From: a virus
Taxonomy: Duplodnaviria; Caudoviricetes
Direction: 5' to 3' (one strand)
DNA: 64,000 bases
IMG/VR virus record: IMGVR_UViG_3300011871_000002
Location: 96,001 to 160,000 of that record
Below, piece by piece: positions 2,667-63,941 of the stretch. Positions within the stretch are counted from its first letter, which is position 1. The number at the start of each line of letters is the position of its first letter. The position numbers were made by a program, and so were the translations under genes. The notes under the pieces were generated by a model. That model worked only from the letters and a program-made list of their open reading frames with translations. It ran no database searches and had not been told where the DNA came from.

Positions 2667-4226
2667 TTGAAGATCATCGTCAAGAAGAAGATAGTGGCAG
2701 AAGACAGCGCCATCGTCTCCATTGTACACAACAATGAAGAATTGGACTGGGTGGTGGATTTCTTGGAAATCGCGACCAAGTCCAAGAAGGAGAAGTCCGT
2801 CTTCGACGCCGAGATCGATCCGTACGACCTCATCAATCGTTACTGGGATTCGCTGCCGCGCACCCGACAGGATCAAATCTTTGGCGTGTATCGCGACATT
2901 CGCGATGTGTTCTCGTCGTGCTTCGATTACACGGAAATGACGAAGTCGCTCTTTCCACTGGTGGCGCGACTCATCGAGTTGCACAGTATCGATGAGCTGA
3001 AGAACTGGTCGGACTACCGAAGCGGTGCGCGGATTCCGACCAACGACCCGAAGTTGCTCGTGTCTTACGACATGGTCAACGTCAGCAAGAAACCGCCAGA
3101 AGGCACTTACCGCCTAGAAGACTACAAGTGGTTGATTGCCATCTCGATTCTGGTGCGCTCCATGGTTCCGGTCTGGGGGCTCTACATCGAGCGGGTCAAG
3201 AAAGTGGTGGGCACCAACTTCAAGGAGTACAAGGCGTATCAGCTTCTGAGCCAGTCGGAACTGTTCGAGCACGCGGCCATGCAAAAGCTGCGTGACTACG
3301 TGCGGTTCAATACCAAGCCCGATCAGGTCAAGGTATCGGCGATGCGCAAGGGCTTGTCCACACAAGAGTATTCGGAATGGATGCTCGGGGTGGTGGTGGT
3401 CCGTAAGCTGGGCTGCCTGGACTTGATGGGTGGCGAGTCGAACAACTCGTCGGTCAATGTGCTGTACAATTACATTGGCCACAAACTCAAAAATAGCGAC
3501 AACAGTTTCGGTGGCGCTATTAATGAGAAAAAGTTCGAAGGCCTGAATGGGGAAGGAGAAAACAATCTCTCGACCCTCGAAGGCTACCGGACGCCGCAGG
3601 AGATTTCCCAAGGTAGCATCCTCGCATTCCAAGTGTATGCAGAGAATGTGGTAGCCATGGCGCAGCAAATCTGCCCTGGTATTCCCGCTGCCATGGTGAA
3701 CCGCTCGGTGGGGCACGTGCGCCTACTGCATGGCGTCATTCCAACCAACGAGCAATTGATCCTCATGCAGTTGACGGTCAAGAAAGTGTTGTCGCCGCAG
3801 TCGCTCAAACTGCTGAACCACGAAACCATTATGGGAGTGATGGGGGTGGTGCAGGCAGTGCTGTGGCACAAAGGGTATCCCGATCTGGCTGCTGCGGCAT
3901 CGGCCAAACGGGTGGAGGCGGACAGCATCGGCGGGAGTGACCACCGTTCACGGATTTTGCCTAACCAGCTGGAAGAGTTGAAACAGCTCTACCCGTATGT
4001 CAGGCGTGTGACTGCCAAATCCAAAACCGAGCAGGAAAATGTCGCACAGAAAGAAATCGAAACCATCGAGAAGGAGTTGAGCAAGAAAAGTTGGGCACTG
4101 ACGCTACCTAAGGAATGGGTGGCCGAACTCAACAAGAGTGAAAACAACAGAAGGTACTTTGTACCAAGTAATTTCAGGATCATTCTGGCACAATTTGTCA
4201 TTGCAGTAGCGAAAGGGGAATTTTAA
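2667..4226 (+). CDS. Non-virion RNAP promoter-specificity (sigma-like) subunit, phiKZ gp68-like
   Basis: 519 aa, helical. Length and position (after chmC, before picA and the nvRNAP beta/beta' genes) match gp68. TTG start behind GGAGAG. Confidence 0.65.
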   Translation: MKIIVKKKIVAEDSAIVSIVHNNEELDWVVDFLEIATKSKKEKSVFDAEIDPYDLINRYWDSLPRTRQDQIFGVYRDIRDVFSSCFDYTEMTKSLFPLVARLIELHSIDELKNWSDYRSGARIPTNDPKLLVSYDMVNVSKKPPEGTYRLEDYKWLIAISILVRSMVPVWGLYIERVKKVVGTNFKEYKAYQLLSQSELFEHAAMQKLRDYVRFNTKPDQVKVSAMRKGLSTQEYSEWMLGVVVVRKLGCLDLMGGESNNSSVNVLYNYIGHKLKNSDNSFGGAINEKKFEGLNGEGENNLSTLEGYRTPQEISQGSILAFQVYAENVVAMAQQICPGIPAAMVNRSVGHVRLLHGVIPTNEQLILMQLTVKKVLSPQSLKLLNHETIMGVMGVVQAVLWHKGYPDLAAAASAKRVEADSIGGSDHRSRILPNQLEELKQLYPYVRRVTAKSKTEQENVAQKEIETIEKELSKKSWALTLPKEWVAELNKSENNRRYFVPSNFRIILAQFVIAVAKGEF

Positions 4227-5711
4227 ATGTTCAACAACAATCAAGAAAGAATCATCGTCACCAGTTTCTTGGTGCAGGAGTCGGCTACGTACCAGCCGCA
4301 ATACCGGCGTGAATGGCGCGCCAACGTGGATGCCGATATCCAAGGCATGCTGATCAACCGCTTCAAGAACCTCAAAGGCAGTACCGCTACCGGTGCCCTG
4401 GCTTCGGGTGTTGCTGAAGTGTTCCTGATGCCGGCCAACCAGCCGGGCAAGGAAATCGCGATCAACGGCAACTGGCAGCATCCGGTGTACCGCGCCCTGT
4501 TGACCGTGGAAGTGCATTCGGCAACCGGCCACGTGGTGCGCTTCGTGGTCACGGCATTTAGCGACCCAGTCGAACGAACGCTGGGTGGTTCGATCAATAA
4601 CCGCATGCCGTTCTACATCACCAACATCGTGCAGCTGCGCCAGTTCGTCGATCGCACCAGCGGCATGGCGGTTCCTGTCACGGCGCTCGGTAGTGCCAAT
4701 CAAATTCTGGCCGACAACCGCTTCGGTGGTTACAGCAGCAAGTACGATTTCCGCATGCGTCCGATGGACGTGTTCAGCTACATCAGTCAACAAGCGATGG
4801 ATCTGGACACTCCCCAGACCGACATTTACGACGAGCGCACCGTGCTGTCGCAAACGCCGATCAAGTCGGAAGTGCGTAACGCCCTGCCGAATGCATTCGT
4901 CGGCAAGGTGCTCTCGGCGTACAAGCAAGCGCATGATAGCTCGGGTGAAATCGGTGGCACCGACATGGATCAGCTCTCCGAAGCGCAGGGCTTGATCATG
5001 GAAGCAGAAAGCGCGCAAGACATTTTCCTGCGTGCGCTGCGCGGCATTCGCCGCCATGGCCTGAGCGACACGGTCAGCAACTACTTCACGCTCGAAGAGC
5101 TGGTGGCGCTGTCGCCCACCGAGTGCGTGGTGCGTCCGAAAGTGATTCCGATCACGCCACAGGTGCAGAAGATGCGCGCAGACGGTCCCGGCGAAACCTG
5201 GGGCAAGACGCACGAACTGCAACGCATGGCTTCTTTCATCAAGGACACGATTCCGGCCCTGATGATGGAAAACATGATCATGCGCGCCCACATCAAGTGC
5301 AGCAACCGCACCTTCGTGGATGGCCGCATGACGGCGCAACTGCTCGACTGGGGTACTTTCTCGGACGTGGACGTTTCGGGCCAGATCGTGCAGCTGGAAA
5401 ACCGCATCGTGCGGGAAGTGCTGTTGCCGCTCTCGGAACAAAACACGCGCGGCCTGGAAATCGACATGCTGATGTTCGTCGATAGCGACAGCCGTTTCGA
5501 GATCTCCCTCGATGGTGCACCGAAAGTCGAGTTCGTCTCGCCGACCTTCGCCGGTTCGCTGCTCACGCCGGTACTGACCGACAACCCGCAAGCGGCATTT
5601 ACCATGGCTGGTGCATTCAAGGACCTGGGTGACATGCTGACCGATGCGGCCACGCAGTTGCCAGCGCTCAAGAATGCCTTCTTCCAGATCGGCACGAAGC
5701 GCGCCTTCTAA
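4227..5711 (+). CDS. picA: PicA/Imp1-like phage nucleus protein-import factor (phiKZ gp69-like)
   Basis: 494 aa, translationally coupled to the gp68-like gene; assigned by synteny and length. Confidence 0.55.
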   Translation: MFNNNQERIIVTSFLVQESATYQPQYRREWRANVDADIQGMLINRFKNLKGSTATGALASGVAEVFLMPANQPGKEIAINGNWQHPVYRALLTVEVHSATGHVVRFVVTAFSDPVERTLGGSINNRMPFYITNIVQLRQFVDRTSGMAVPVTALGSANQILADNRFGGYSSKYDFRMRPMDVFSYISQQAMDLDTPQTDIYDERTVLSQTPIKSEVRNALPNAFVGKVLSAYKQAHDSSGEIGGTDMDQLSEAQGLIMEAESAQDIFLRALRGIRRHGLSDTVSNYFTLEELVALSPTECVVRPKVIPITPQVQKMRADGPGETWGKTHELQRMASFIKDTIPALMMENMIMRAHIKCSNRTFVDGRMTAQLLDWGTFSDVDVSGQIVQLENRIVREVLLPLSEQNTRGLEIDMLMFVDSDSRFEISLDGAPKVEFVSPTFAGSLLTPVLTDNPQAAFTMAGAFKDLGDMLTDAATQLPALKNAFFQIGTKRAF

Positions 5712-59724: not shown

Positions 59725-60369
59725 ATGAAACTTAAACGAGGCGTTTTCATTACGCTAGAAGGACCAGACGCATGCGGTAAAACTACCCAGTGTGATCATC
59801 TAGTGCAGCTGTTGCAACAAAAAGGTTACACGGTCGTACGAAGTCGCGAGCCGGGCGGTACCCCATTGGCAGAAAAACTGCGTAGCTTAATCATTCACGA
59901 ATCGATGGACCCGCTCGCGGAACTGTTCTTGTTCTTCGCATGTCGGGCAGATAACGTCGAAAAGATCATCAAGCCAGCCATCGCGCGCGGCGAAGTGGTG
60001 GTGTTTGATCGGTTCGTGGATTCTTCGATCGTGTTTCAAGGCTATGGTCGCGGGCTGTTAGAGCAAGCGTATAAACTCAAGGAGTTGTTGTTCGAACGCA
60101 GCAAGATACGCATCGATCACACACTCTACTTCGATATCCCGATGGAGGAAAGTTTCCGTCGCTTGGCGCACCGGAGTGGTGAAGATCGGTTTGAAAAAGA
60201 AGTGGCCGATTTTAAAGCCCGCATTTTCCATGGATACCAGGAAGTCATGGATGAAGTGGAACACCGGGTTACTCGCATCGACGCTGGCGGCTCGATTGAC
60301 GAAGTAAAAGCACTTGTCGAAGAGTGGGTCGAGAAATTTGTCCAAGAACATCCATTGATGGAGAAGTGA
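59725..60369 (+). CDS. tmk: Thymidylate (dTMP) kinase
   Basis: FITLEGPDACGKTTQ, REPGGT, ELFLF.A.R, DRFVDSS..FQG.GRG, DRFE. Confidence 0.95.
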   Translation: MKLKRGVFITLEGPDACGKTTQCDHLVQLLQQKGYTVVRSREPGGTPLAEKLRSLIIHESMDPLAELFLFFACRADNVEKIIKPAIARGEVVVFDRFVDSSIVFQGYGRGLLEQAYKLKELLFERSKIRIDHTLYFDIPMEESFRRLAHRSGEDRFEKEVADFKARIFHGYQEVMDEVEHRVTRIDAGGSIDEVKALVEEWVEKFVQEHPLMEK

Positions 60370-60753
60370 ATGGCTGAAGGAAAGAAAATCAAGGTAGGAC
60401 AATGTCGCGTCAAAAGAATGCGCGAAGGCGGAGGCACCTCCATGCCGTGGACGTGGCAGGAGTGTACGGTCTGCGGTGCGCATGAGGACGAAGAGTGTAA
60501 GCTCTCCGAAGATGCAGTAAGTCGAGAGATGACAAACCGTATTTGGACGGCAGAGACTACATGTAGATCCTATCCGGAAGTAGAATCTGATACGAGAATT
60601 TTCGTAAAGGAACTGTTACGTCAAGAACGCATCAAAACGGGGACGGATAGCGTTAAAGACACAAAAGAAAATCCTCTCATTTTGCTTATCGTTCTTTGCG
60701 CTTTCGTTGCCTTAGGCATTTTGGGTGGTGCTTATCTGTACTGTAAACGATAA
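60370..60753 (+). CDS. Hypothetical protein with CxxC motif and C-terminal TM helix
   Basis: CTVCGAH....C; LILLIVLCAFVALGILGGAYLY. Confidence 0.6.
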   Translation: MAEGKKIKVGQCRVKRMREGGGTSMPWTWQECTVCGAHEDEECKLSEDAVSREMTNRIWTAETTCRSYPEVESDTRIFVKELLRQERIKTGTDSVKDTKENPLILLIVLCAFVALGILGGAYLYCKR

Positions 60754-60764
60754 GGAGAAATGTC

Positions 60765-61133
60765 GTGTTCGCAATTGGCATACGTTTTACGGGCTACAAT
60801 GTCAGTAGCATCGTGGAAGGCAAAAGCATGGCTCAATTTTCGGGCGGCTGTTTCTATCTGTCCGCTCGATTACCGCGCACAAACAAGAGCCCTTGCTGGG
60901 GCTTGACCCAGCACGGTGAAGAACCAACACTCTTCAAGGGGGTGGTGGAAGCCACCGAAATGCTTCAAGATGCATTGGCGTGCCTGACAAAGTACGAATC
61001 CCACGGGGAAGAACTCCGCGCGGCCTTGCAAGAAATTATTGAAGAGATTCCGCAAGGCGTGAATTACTGGACTTTGTTGGAAGTAGTGAAATTCCAACCT
61101 ATCGTTCTCGATACCTTCGAGTTTTCTTTGTAA
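60765..61133 (+). CDS. Hypothetical protein
   Basis: GTG start behind AAGGAG. Confidence 0.6.
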
Positions 61134-61153
61134 TCCATTATCATCTAGAAAGA

Positions 61154-62824
61154 ATGAACATGAAGCAATACACCGATCTCGTTCGTAAGTGCCTGACCCA
61201 AGGCAACATCCGTACCGACCGCACCAATACCGGTACCATCTCCATCTTCGGTCCCCAGATGGAGTTCGACCTGTCCAAGGGCTTCCCGCTCGATACCGGC
61301 CGCCAGCTGTTCCTGCGTGGCATCCTCGAAGAAAACTTCTGGATGCTGCGCGGTTCGACCGACAACAACGAGTTGGTCGAGCGCCGGGTCCACATCTGGG
61401 ACGAGTGGTGCAATACCGAAGTCGAATTCGATGACGATTTTGATAGTCGTCCTATTGTCTACGTAGAGCCGCGCATTAAAGATTATACGTCATACTACAA
61501 ACCTGATTCTTCTGGCGTTTCGGCACCCAACGGAACAATTGATGATAAGCTCCGCTCACAATGGATCAAAATGATGGATCGTTGTTATAATCCGTCCGCA
61601 CATAACTACAGGTACTACGGAGGTCGCAATATCTTCGTTGACGCGCGTTGGCATATTCTTCAAAATTTCATCAACGATGTAAAACAACTTCCCAACTGGA
61701 AGCACAAACTGGCAGACTGGAACAATTATAATCTCGACAAGGATTATTTTAGTTCCAACTGTTATTCCCGAGAAACTTGTTTGTGGCTCAGTAAGCAAGA
61801 AAACGGCATCTATGGTTCGACCAATAGTACCATTATTGTGGTATTCCCTAATGGACATGTTGAACTGTTTATCAGTGTTTCACAATGTGCCGAAGAGTTG
61901 GAGGTTTCGCGGAGTTCGGTACATCGTTTTACAAAAAGCGTACCTGAAGTTCTGAAAGGTGAAAATAAGAAACTTAAAGGCATTCGATTCGGTATTCTGA
62001 GTCAACCCTTCCGTTATGCAATTCCAAAAATTGGTGATCTCGGTCCTATTTATGGAAAACAGTGGCGTTTTTGGGGAGAAGAAAAAATCACCAAAGCTAC
62101 TGTGTTGGAAATCGTCAACAGTAACCTCAATGACGAAGTTCAAATGTTTACCGAACTTAGTAATCTTTTCAAAAATAACGGTATTCATTATTATTCGATC
62201 GCGCAGCGTATCGGTATCGCCGAAGACATGCTGGCCGCTGGCGTGGCCGAGAAGTTCACCCAAGCTGATCTGGATGAATTGAAAGCGTATTGCCAAAATA
62301 CCCAAAGCGAAGAAGGCGCTGCACTTACTGCTTTCGGGAAAGAGCGCGTGAACATGCGCCTCGCCCGATTCGGCATCCCGAAAACGACTACCCGCCGCGC
62401 CACCATCGACCAGATCACCAAGCTGATCGACGACTTGAAGAAGCGCCCCAACTCGCGCCGTCACGTGGTCTCGGCGTGGAATGTGGCTGCTCTGCCAGAC
62501 GAGTCGCTCACGCCCCATCAGAACGTGATGGCTGGCAAGATGGCACTGGCGCCGTGCCACGCGCTGTTCCAGTTCTACGTGGAAGACCGCAGTATTCAGG
62601 ACATGGTCGCGGAACTGCCGGAAAACGTACAGCAGGAATTCAAGTGGTTTAAGAAGGACAACGACCTGATCCACCTCGCTCAGGACATGCTCAGCCTCGA
62701 TGCACTTCCGCAACCGGCGTACTACGAAGCGATGTTTAACTTCGAAAAGCGTGAAAAGCTGATGTCATTCTTCTCGGAGCGCGGCATCAAAACCAAGAAG
62801 CTCTCCTGCAAGCTGTACCAGCGT
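61154..62824 (+). CDS. thyA: Thymidylate synthase exon 1 (contains an in-frame HNH endonuclease insert)
   Basis: [63 protein letters not shown]. Confidence 0.9.
61412..62032 (+). mobile_element. HNH-family homing endonuclease inserted in frame within ThyA (~207 codons)
   Basis: W..M.DRCYNP....Y.YYGGR.I.V..RW...NF..D, LDKD.....YS.ETC.W....EN, C-terminal NUMOD1-like HTH; AT-rich; lies between IWDEWC and GDLGPIYG. Confidence 0.8.
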
Positions 62825-63084
62825 TCCCATTAATCTGAGCGCCCTCTAGGAGTAATCCTAGTTGAATAATCTCTCTAATTGCTGGGAAGTCTCTTTGAGA
62901 CAATCAGCAGCGAAGCTCCTATACTGGAGAACGTTCAACGACTAGCTGAAAAGCGTAGACCCAAGCGGGTCGAAACGGGAGAGGTCCTCAAATCGAGGAT
63001 CGTGATATAGTCTGCTCTGCATGGCGACATGCAGCAGTTCGTAAGAGAACGGGGAAAGCCTAGCGAACTTTCTCGAACATAATG
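62825..63084 (+). ncRNA. ORF-less group I intron (IA-type) in thyA, 260 nt
   Basis: 5' exon ends in U (CGT), intron ends in G. IGS TCTGAGCGC (62834-62842) pairs with both exons. P AATTGCTGGGAA, Q AATCAGCAG, R GTTCAACGACTA, S GATATAGTCT; P7.1/P7.2 hairpins. Splicing restores YQR|[12 protein letters not shown]. Confidence 0.92.
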
Positions 63085-63399
63085 TCAGGAGACATCGTGC
63101 TGGGGGTGCCATTCAATATCGCTGCTTACGCCGCCATGACGATGATGATTGCGCAATGCGTCGACATGGTGCCGGGCATGTTCATCCACACCTTCGGCGA
63201 CGCGCACATCTACAAAAACCACATTCTGCCCAACGCCCAAGGCGAATCGATCCTCACTCAACTGGAGCGGGAAGAGCGCCCGCTGCCAAAATTGTGGATC
63301 AACCCAGAAGTCAAGAACATTTTCGACTTCAAGTATGATGACTTCCGGCTGGAATCGTACCACCCCCATCCGAAAATCGAATATCCAGTAGCAGTTTAA
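63085..63399 (+). CDS. thyA: Thymidylate synthase exon 2
   Basis: [45 protein letters not shown]. Confidence 0.92.
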
Positions 63400-63443: not shown

Positions 63444-63941
63444 ATGAAAAAGATTACCATTGTCGCTGCGCTTGATCAACGTGGCGGTATCGGAAAGGCC
63501 GGGGCACTTCCTTGGAAGCTCCCAGAAGACCTGCAACACTTCAAGTGCACGACCGCATACAGTGCCATGATCATGGGGCGCAAGACGTTTGAGTCGATCG
63601 GGCGGGTACTCCCGAATCGCCGTCATGTCGTCGTCACGCGTCAAAAGGGTTGGTCGCATCCGGGCGTGGATGTGGCGCATTCGCTGGAAGAAGCCATCGC
63701 CATGATCAATGACTTGCATGTGTTCGTCATCGGCGGTGGTGAACTCTACAAGCAAGCCCTGCCGCTGTGCGACTACATGGTGTTGACGCACGTGTACGAC
63801 ACGTTCGACTGCGACACCTTCTTCCCGGATTTCAACAGGGGTGAATGGTCGGGGCGTTTCACGGTCGACCATGTTGACGCCGAATCAGGCACACGGTTTT
63901 GCTTTGGTTACTGGCTGCGTCAAGTCGGAGGAAAAGGATAG
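63444..63941 (+). CDS. folA: Dihydrofolate reductase
   Basis: GIG..G.LPW.LPEDL.HFK, IMGRKTFESI, LPNR, VIGGGELY, DTFFP. Confidence 0.95.
   Translation: MKKITIVAALDQRGGIGKAGALPWKLPEDLQHFKCTTAYSAMIMGRKTFESIGRVLPNRRHVVVTRQKGWSHPGVDVAHSLEEAIAMINDLHVFVIGGGELYKQALPLCDYMVLTHVYDTFDCDTFFPDFNRGEWSGRFTVDHVDAESGTRFCFGYWLRQVGGKG

Follow-up and report, generated by a model that had tools for sequence, protein, structure and literature searches.

The thymidylate synthase gene (thyA) described here lies at 61154-63399 of a 64,000-nt stretch of viral DNA, hereafter the window, which corresponds to bases 96001-160000 of the IMG/VR record IMGVR_UViG_3300011871_000002 (Caudoviricetes). The source record is 218.7 kb long with a CheckV completeness of 82%, therefore the virus is a jumbo phage. 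A single open frame (61154-62833) encodes ThyA up to IWDEW, then 208 extra residues, and then ThyA again at GDLGPIYG. The insert (61409-62032) is thus in frame and is flanked by IWDEW before and GDLG after it. It resembles a homing endonuclease gene (HEG) product and is referred to as the module. A group I intron interrupts the gene further downstream, and the predicted spliced product has 557+104 = 661 aa, or ~75 kDa. The in-frame insert in the loop IWDEW..GDLG, the double invasion of the gene and the product of ~661 aa had all been proposed in a first-pass annotation of this DNA, and all three were recovered in this work. The features of the gene are as follows.

61154..62824, + strand: thyA exon 1, 557 codons including the module; PF00303 match with E 1.1e-49 in three stretches.
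61154..61408, + strand: N-terminal ThyA core to IWDEW, with a host-type GC content at third codon positions (GC3) of 0.84.
61409..62032, + strand: HEG-like module of 208 aa, consisting of an N-terminal strand, an atypical HNH-like domain, a NUMOD/helix-turn-helix (HTH) domain, and a C-terminal strand.
62033..62098, + strand: conserved ThyA segment GDLG..WRFWG after the module, with a donor-type GC3 of 0.27; read as co-converted host exon.
62099..62200, + strand: seg2, ~35 aa, ending in ..LFKNNGIH, of donor-type composition; probable right end of the imported cassette.
62201..62824, + strand: remainder of exon 1, host-type, with seg3, seg4, IDQI..SRR, and the catalytic Cys in LAPCH.
62825..63084, + strand: group I intron between LYQR and S, without an open reading frame (ORF); RF00028 match of 81 bits.
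62831-62833, + strand: TAA stop of the unspliced thyA frame.
63085..63399, + strand: thyA exon 2, 104 codons plus stop; PF00303 match with E 2.3e-35 at model positions 169-266.

The Pfam family Thymidylat_synt (PF00303, cut-off 24.3 bits) matches on either side of the insert in exon 1 (169 bits) and again in the ORF 63082-63399 that holds exon 2 (122.5 bits). The stretches of exon 1 cover model positions 1-140 and ~104-157. The catalytic motifs of ThyA are all present, namely the Cys (PCH), the dUMP-binding Arg (DRT.., SRR), and the Asp/Asn of GD..L GVPFN.. and GDxHxY, and these motifs are invariant in the alignment of homologs. The loop after IWDEW varies in length within the ThyA sample. It has 3-6 residues in E. 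coli-like forms, 54-114 residues in many phage forms, and 258 residues in P0116.

The fold of the enzyme was checked on P0007, a full-length intronless homolog that is 57% identical to the window protein and was used as its stand-in. The AlphaFold2 (AF2) model of P0007 has a predicted local distance difference test score (pLDDT) of 90.1 and a predicted template modelling score (pTM) of 0.85. Its modelled ThyA core superposes on E. coli thymidylate synthase (TS) with a TM score of 0.95 and a root-mean-square deviation of 2.1-3.2 Å. According to this homolog model, the TS fold stays intact with the insert. The sole PF00303 match of both Calidithermus chliarophilus and Demequina iriomotensis is a module-bearing ThyA. 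The sequences come from the cultured strains C. chliarophilus DSM 9957 (L036, NZ_KE387027.1) and D. iriomotensis NBRC 109399 (L041), and both modules are located at the second of two insertion sites (site B, defined below).

The 208 residues of the insert comprise two recognisable domains, an atypical HNH-like domain at residues ~43-135 and an I-HmuI-type NUMOD/HTH domain at ~136-198. PHROG 2081 ('HNH endonuclease') matches insert residues 43-194 with E 5.6e-33, and Pfam PF22083 (I-HmuI NUMOD-like) matches residues 143-194 with 36.1 bits (cut-off 27). None of the Pfam HNH families matches the insert at E<=10. An AP2 domain was not matched in the module, where the C-terminal domain is the NUMOD-like/HTH domain of PF22083, and NCBIfam gave no useful name for the module. 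The PDB sequence search with the insert alone gave no match, and the PDB profile search matched the C-terminal domain of I-HmuI and nothing else. The AF2 model of the insert was built on 41 homologous inserts and has a pLDDT of 91.3 and a pTM of 0.83. When compared with PDB folds, this model has the homing nickase I-HmuI as its sole significant match (E 7.6e-4).

The N-terminal domain exhibits a strand-strand-helix at residues 107-134 in HNH register. The motif L-D-K-D, with D110, K111, and D112 in module numbering, is invariant in 41/41 aligned copies and is also found in the free-standing relatives and in gp59 of phage ICP1. The general-base His of HNH nucleases is replaced by its Lys, which lies at the end of strand 1 where HNH has the catalytic His. 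The alignment of the module with ICP1 gp59 (hhalign) has a probability of 97.3% and E 2.2e-11 over 84 columns, and both share the RCY and LDKD motifs. Because of this alignment and these shared motifs, the nuclease-like domain is assigned by homology to the atypical HNH-related IPA-HNH (gp59) family. The insert had been described as a full HNH endonuclease with a NUMOD HTH. The relationship and the HTH are upheld by the PHROG 2081 and PF22083 matches; the word 'full' is not, given the invariant Lys in place of His and the lack of a Pfam HNH match, and the activity is putative. No separate translation start was found for the module. No in-frame ATG, GTG or TTG precedes module residue 55, which is itself inside a helix, and there is no stop codon at the module end.

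The composition of the module is foreign to the gene that carries it. The GC content of the tract is 0.41 compared with 0.57-0.58. The N-terminal core has a GC3 of 0.84. This value drops to 0.40 in the module and 0.27 over the 22 conserved ThyA codons that follow, is 0.41-0.43 over another ~35 codons, and rises to 0.63-0.81 beyond the AT-rich tract. Expression level cannot explain this step because all of these codons belong to one single ORF. Up to 61399, the N-terminal core is 77.9% identical in nucleotides to L019, a relative without the insert. The AT-rich tract stops at ~62200 and the DNA similarity to insert-less relatives restarts at 62216-62219. The donor-type GC3 reaches ~170 nt beyond the module, including 66 nt of conserved thyA. 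Judged from composition and similarity, the imported tract is 61409 to ~62200, and its AT-rich overhang looks like a co-conversion tract. This was also the earlier explanation of the AT-rich tract to ~62200, and it is borne out by the GC3 of 0.27-0.43 compared with 0.74-0.84 on either side of the tract.

The right end of the cassette appears to depend on the lineage, because the similarity of the window switches from L020 to L019 and L021 past 62188. The window and the module-bearing L020 are continuously similar over 61148-62188. From 62216 to ~62400, the window resembles the module-less L019 and L021 instead (82-90% nucleotide identity), and the protein encoded by seg3 of the window is 53-58% identical to L019/L021 compared with 24% to L020. 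Such differing ends are what variable co-conversion tracts would give. The presence and absence of the module are also seen between very similar alleles. L020 (P0005, with module) and L019 (P0012, without module) are 92.4% identical in nucleotides across the 250 nt that precede the loop and 89.2% identical across 881 nt after IDQI, and their middles (982 vs 532 nt) are unalignable. The alignment shows that seg2 is a loop segment present in just one subgroup of module-bearing ThyAs. The module-less P0012, P0018, and P0021 have a filler of 68-114 aa at the same loop. The filler was considered as a decayed module and this was rejected, as its identity to the module is 13-19%; the filler rather looks like the helical '..GIP(K/R)..' units of seg3, seg4, and the P0116 loop. 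The megablast search of the locus against cultured phages gave short intron-core matches only.

The search with exon 1 identified dozens of ThyAs of 450-620 aa. Among 117 classifiable proteins, ~37 carry the module at site A, which is the site of the window after IW..W, and ~36 carry it at site B, which lies after GPxYGxQWRxW. The other 44 are without the module. The profile-free scan of 1.84 billion representatives gave 608 proteins at E<=1e-10, and most of the best 150 are embedded in ThyA. Free-standing homologs were also identified. These ORFs of ~195 aa lie between unrelated phage genes and share both ends with the embedded copies, including ..VEVEPR.. at the N-terminus. Another family member is located in an interruption of the DNA polymerase gene of Staphylococcus phage Romulus. 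That gene (L029, NC_020877.1; 95-2782 and 3025-3669) has an annotated intein, and its second interruption, after ..AFGLIYG, holds a 214-aa ORF of the LDKD HNH-like/NUMOD family. No intron was found in this second interruption with Rfam at the gathering threshold.

The cultured phages found to carry a module-bearing thyA are Enterococcus phage vB_EfaM_A2, with a ThyA of 491 aa, phage 163, Bacillus phage Kioshi, and Tenacibaculum phage PTm1, and in all four the gene is annotated merely as 'thymidylate synthase'. One motif pattern matched 11 GTDB species genomes, and 11/11 matches are inside ThyA-family frames. In the family of C. chliarophilus, the module is present in 2/20 ThyA-bearing genomes and the gene is uninterrupted in 18/20. 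The viral-contig search with the 557-aa protein gave distant thyA loci only (30-42% identity). The site-B inserts (e.g. P0066:100-200 and P0079:100-200) have ~80 extra N-terminal residues (..IEP..ETPF..G..F....G.Y.V..) that are not in the site-A inserts. These residues resemble the beta-rich N-terminal part of the longer relatives that stand alone (PHROG 2081 profile positions 1-100). A description of an endonuclease module inside ThyA was not found in the literature searched, and the ThyA module is not mentioned in a jumbo-phage survey (PMC7824862) or in a paper on TS of the Bastille group (PMC4528723).

The ThyA core tree was constructed from 117 rows with the insert columns excluded. This tree exhibits at least 20 changes of module state. 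The sister pairs P0008/P0082 (support 97) and P0006/P0042 (support 99) each join a protein with the module and a protein without it, and the sister pair P0156/P0067 (support 99) joins a site-A and a site-B protein. The module tree exhibits 7 changes for three labels. The site-A and site-B copies are separate in it, and the free-standing forms are interleaved near site A. The approximately unbiased (AU) test was performed on a reduced 42-row set under LG+G4. The module of the window belongs to a module clade with support 99, and the core data reject a grouping of the 13 hosts of this clade as one clade, with a log-likelihood difference of 358 and a p-AU of 9.5e-8. The pairwise identities of inserts and cores are weakly correlated (Spearman 0.18); the cores of P0015 and P0041, for example, are 78% identical and their inserts 36%. 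The mobile and not ancestral nature of the module is supported by these sequence comparisons.

Two of the behaviours that characterise HEGs were observed in the module, namely a sporadic distribution among close relatives that is incongruent with the host gene, and co-conversion of flanking host sequence as indicated by donor-type GC3 and differing junctions. A fixed ancestral insert of genome-typical composition, which the first-pass annotation had set against its own explanation, does not agree with the foreign GC3 and the scattered presence. The ratio of nonsynonymous to synonymous divergence (dN/dS) of the module is ~0.09 (dN 0.20, dS saturated), and in the comparison with L027 the module has a lower dN than the enzyme core. 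Because dN/dS is ~0.09, the module is taken to be a maintained protein and no decaying passenger.

No signature of splicing was identified in the insert. The insert begins with Cys, but it ends in ..IPKI before GDLG, without His-Asn followed by Cys, Ser or Thr, so the ends of an intein are lacking. No Hint or intein family of Pfam matches the insert, and no Rfam match was found at E<=1 in 60500-62790. The earlier statement that the insert is without intein ends and group I elements therefore holds. The 208 aa are wholly occupied by two folded nuclease-type domains, and the module is kept in frame in ~70 divergent ThyAs. The relative P0014 (a JGI metagenome protein of 791 aa) is a ThyA that has been invaded three times. 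It carries a site-A HNH-like module together with a canonical intein (Hint and LAGLIDADG) at the catalytic Cys, between ..PPC and H.., and its frame stops just past LYQR, like the intron-bearing alleles. It is highly improbable that the insert is spliced out by an unrecognised RNA or protein mechanism. That explanation has in its favour only that insertions in essential enzymes are, as a rule, spliced out. It is opposed by the missing ribozyme and Hint signatures, the ends of the insert, the lack of room beside the two nuclease-type domains, the frame conserved across hosts, and the position of the true intein of P0014, which is elsewhere and canonical in look. The continuous frame with ThyA on both sides supports the suggestion of the first-pass annotation that the module rides along unspliced and in frame, as a passenger in a ThyA loop that tolerates insertion. 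The fusion protein presumably stays unprocessed.

The complete 260-nt ORF-less group I intron that had been noticed downstream was confirmed. The RF00028 match has 81 bits (gathering score 50) and E 2.8e-20. The intron (62825-63084) has a 6-bp P1 in which the exon ..GCGU/UC (the slash marks the splice site) pairs with GAGCGC of the intron and places a U.G pair at the 5' splice site. It ends in G, and a 5-bp P10 is formed by UCAGG of exon 2 with UCUGA of the intron. Collinearity with L021, which has no intron, is regained when exactly 260 nt are taken out, as 34 nt of L021 correspond to 7+27 nt in the window. The host frame is restored and the spliced junction reads LYQR followed by S. Splicing of the intron is predicted from these features. 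The 5' part (to P5/P6) and the 3' part (P7 to end) can both be closely aligned to the introns that L019 and L020 carry at this site. The middle of the L019 intron holds a 260-aa ORF with GIY-YIG, NUMOD3, and I-TevI DNA-binding domains (4346-5128, + strand). The L020 intron has an ORF at the corresponding place (4126-4437) that runs off the contig end and is without a domain call. The intron copies of the window and of L027 are ORF-less, and the window intron looks like that of L019 and L020 minus the ORF-bearing middle.

The alignment of thyA among related phages had been suggested as a check, and it shows that insert and intron are both polymorphic, with all four presence/absence combinations among the relatives. 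The module is present without the intron in P0007-P0011 and P0020, and the intron is present without the module in P0012, P0043, P0095, and P0104. Because the intron of relatives carries its own endonuclease and all four combinations occur, the intron is assessed as a separate, td-like invader from a family equipped with a GIY-YIG endonuclease. The first-pass annotation had proposed collaborative homing, in which the in-frame nuclease targets the intron site and the ORF-less intron gives immunity and hitch-hikes. There is a precedent in the free-standing nuclease F-CphI and the psbA intron of cyanophages, and the window and L027 do pair the module with an ORF-less intron ~800 nt downstream. 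However, the same intron carries a GIY-YIG/I-TevI-like ORF of its own in the module-less L019 and an ORF in the module-bearing L020, the intron is absent from many module-bearing ThyAs and present in several module-less ones, and the bacterial site-B modules are in frames that are uninterrupted through the C-terminal half of ThyA. Collaborative homing is thus improbable for this locus. The further proposal that splicing sets the ratio of nuclease-only to bifunctional protein is not supported either.

The findings in this work are best explained, with a probability of about 0.7, by the module being an in-frame element of the gp59-type HNH-like family that homes to a specific site without splicing and is tolerated in a permissive loop of a functional ThyA. 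In this mechanism, a HEG-type protein with an IPA-HNH-like domain and an I-HmuI-type HTH would sit in a variable loop of the small domain of ThyA. It would be translated as part of the working enzyme and removed from neither RNA nor protein. The module itself would cleave or nick empty thyA sites, and gene conversion, either break-induced or recombination-mediated, would pass the module from a thyA that bears it to an allele that lacks it. Flanking thyA would be dragged along in the conversion, giving the cassette of 61409 to ~62200 in the window, and the 260-nt intron would be an independent second invader.

Several points weigh against the homing element. The weakest link is catalysis, as the general base of HNH, a His, is replaced by an invariant Lys and the nuclease activity is putative. 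The homing of IPA-HNH endonucleases is itself without experimental verification (PMC10448857). The modules of the window, L020, and L027 are mutually old, with saturated dS, therefore no very recent homing event has been caught. The sequences were sampled for their similarity to the query, and the clade of the AU test was chosen after the trees were seen. The high pTM of the full-length model may also mean a functionally integrated domain. This last point leads to the main rival, in which the module is a catalytically dead DNA-binding domain that ThyA has co-opted, for instance as an anchor of dTMP synthesis on DNA or as an autoregulator of thyA, and the patchiness results from ordinary recombination and losses and not from homing. 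The Lys that replaces the catalytic His in all copies, the dN/dS of ~0.09, the pTM of 0.85, which implies a fixed domain orientation, and the two bacteria that keep the module in their only PF00303 ThyA are all in line with such an exapted domain. However, ORFs that stand alone between unrelated genes also contain the LDKD domain, as does the interruption of a DNA polymerase gene. Such locations are typical of HEGs, and the domain is homologous to the gp59-type HEGs of ICP1. The module lineages follow the insertion site and not the host, the module is present in only 2/20 ThyA-bearing genomes of one bacterial family, and the GC3 of the window copy is foreign. The invariant charged D-K-D triad also suits an active site better than a relic. 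We consider the exapted domain unlikely overall, and it keeps appreciable weight because Lys replaces the HNH His and catalysis of the gp59-type family is putative.

Beyond the homing element at this locus, a broader proposal can be made tentatively, with slightly less than even odds. The unspliced in-frame 'guest domain' may be a third and widespread residence of HEGs in essential genes, with lineages that each target one of two ThyA loops and spread between phages and bacteria. The fusion would be bifunctional, with working thymidylate synthase activity, and its obligate dimer would present two Lys-type nickase modules that could jointly make a double-strand break in the module-less thyA of a co-infecting competitor.

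The nearest published analogue of the ThyA module is the ShiLan domain, a sporadic in-frame insertion in DNA methylase genes of mycobacteriophages (Arsenault, Gosselin & Gogarten, 2025, PMC11855218). Both are in frame and HNH-associated without a detectable intein or intron, and ShiLan is predicted to stay as a projecting element. However, the HNH of ShiLan is in a different reading frame and its in-frame product is a hairpin-like loop, whereas the endonuclease-like protein itself is in frame in ThyA. The host of ShiLan is a non-essential methylase and that of the module is thyA. The IPA-HNH HEGs of ICP1-like phages (gp59, gp115-116, and gp209; Barth, Dunham & Seed, 2023, PMC10448857) have a homologous nuclease-like domain that, like the module, is too divergent for the Pfam HNH models. 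They are free-standing with a C-terminal AP2, whereas the module is embedded in frame with an I-HmuI-type NUMOD/HTH. I-HmuI, the HNH nickase of the SPO1 DNA polymerase intron (PDB 1U3E), resembles the module in its C-terminal NUMOD/HTH domain and as the only significant fold match; it is intron-encoded and has the canonical HNH His, whereas the module has no surrounding intron and Lys instead. Inteins are likewise in-frame, HEG-bearing, sporadic insertions in conserved enzymes, but the module has no Hint domain, splice-junction residues or room for a splicing domain. The T4 td intron with I-TevI and the thyA introns of Bacillus phages beta22 and Bobb (PMC4528723) are likewise group I introns in phage thyA. 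The L019 intron carries an I-TevI-like GIY-YIG ORF, and the window copy is ORF-less with 260 nt.

The gene belongs to a nucleotide-metabolism cluster that consists of the dTMP kinase gene (tmk, 59725-60369), thyA (61154-63399), and the dihydrofolate reductase gene (63444-63941). The gap between tmk and thyA holds two small ORFs (60370-60753 and 60765-61133, both + strand) with no family assigned. The former is Cys-rich and has a hydrophobic C-terminal segment that is probably membrane-spanning. Within thyA, seg3 (~62201-62404) and seg4 (~62654-62790) are further large helical loop insertions of this ThyA clade with host-type composition, and each terminates in a ..G(I/V)P(K/R).. motif. Units that resemble them fill the IWDEW loop of module-less relatives, and ~4 repeats are present in the 258-aa loop of P0116. 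A second copy of the module was not found in the 218.7-kb record. Among sequencing runs, none from RNA was listed as containing this DNA, and one marine DNA run contained 6% of the sampled words.

To our knowledge, HEGs in essential genes have been thought to survive only in self-splicing introns or inteins, and otherwise to lie beside genes or to split them. The thyA module is a whole endonuclease-type protein that appears to be tolerated as a domain of an enzyme and yet exhibits the population signatures of a mobile element, namely foreign composition, presence and absence among near-identical alleles, and lineages that follow the insertion site and not the host. If the nuclease is active, the module would represent a new residence strategy for selfish genes. 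It would also provide natural cases of large domain insertions that are tolerated by thymidylate synthase, as well as a family of HNH-like nucleases that contain Lys and have their specific targets in thyA.

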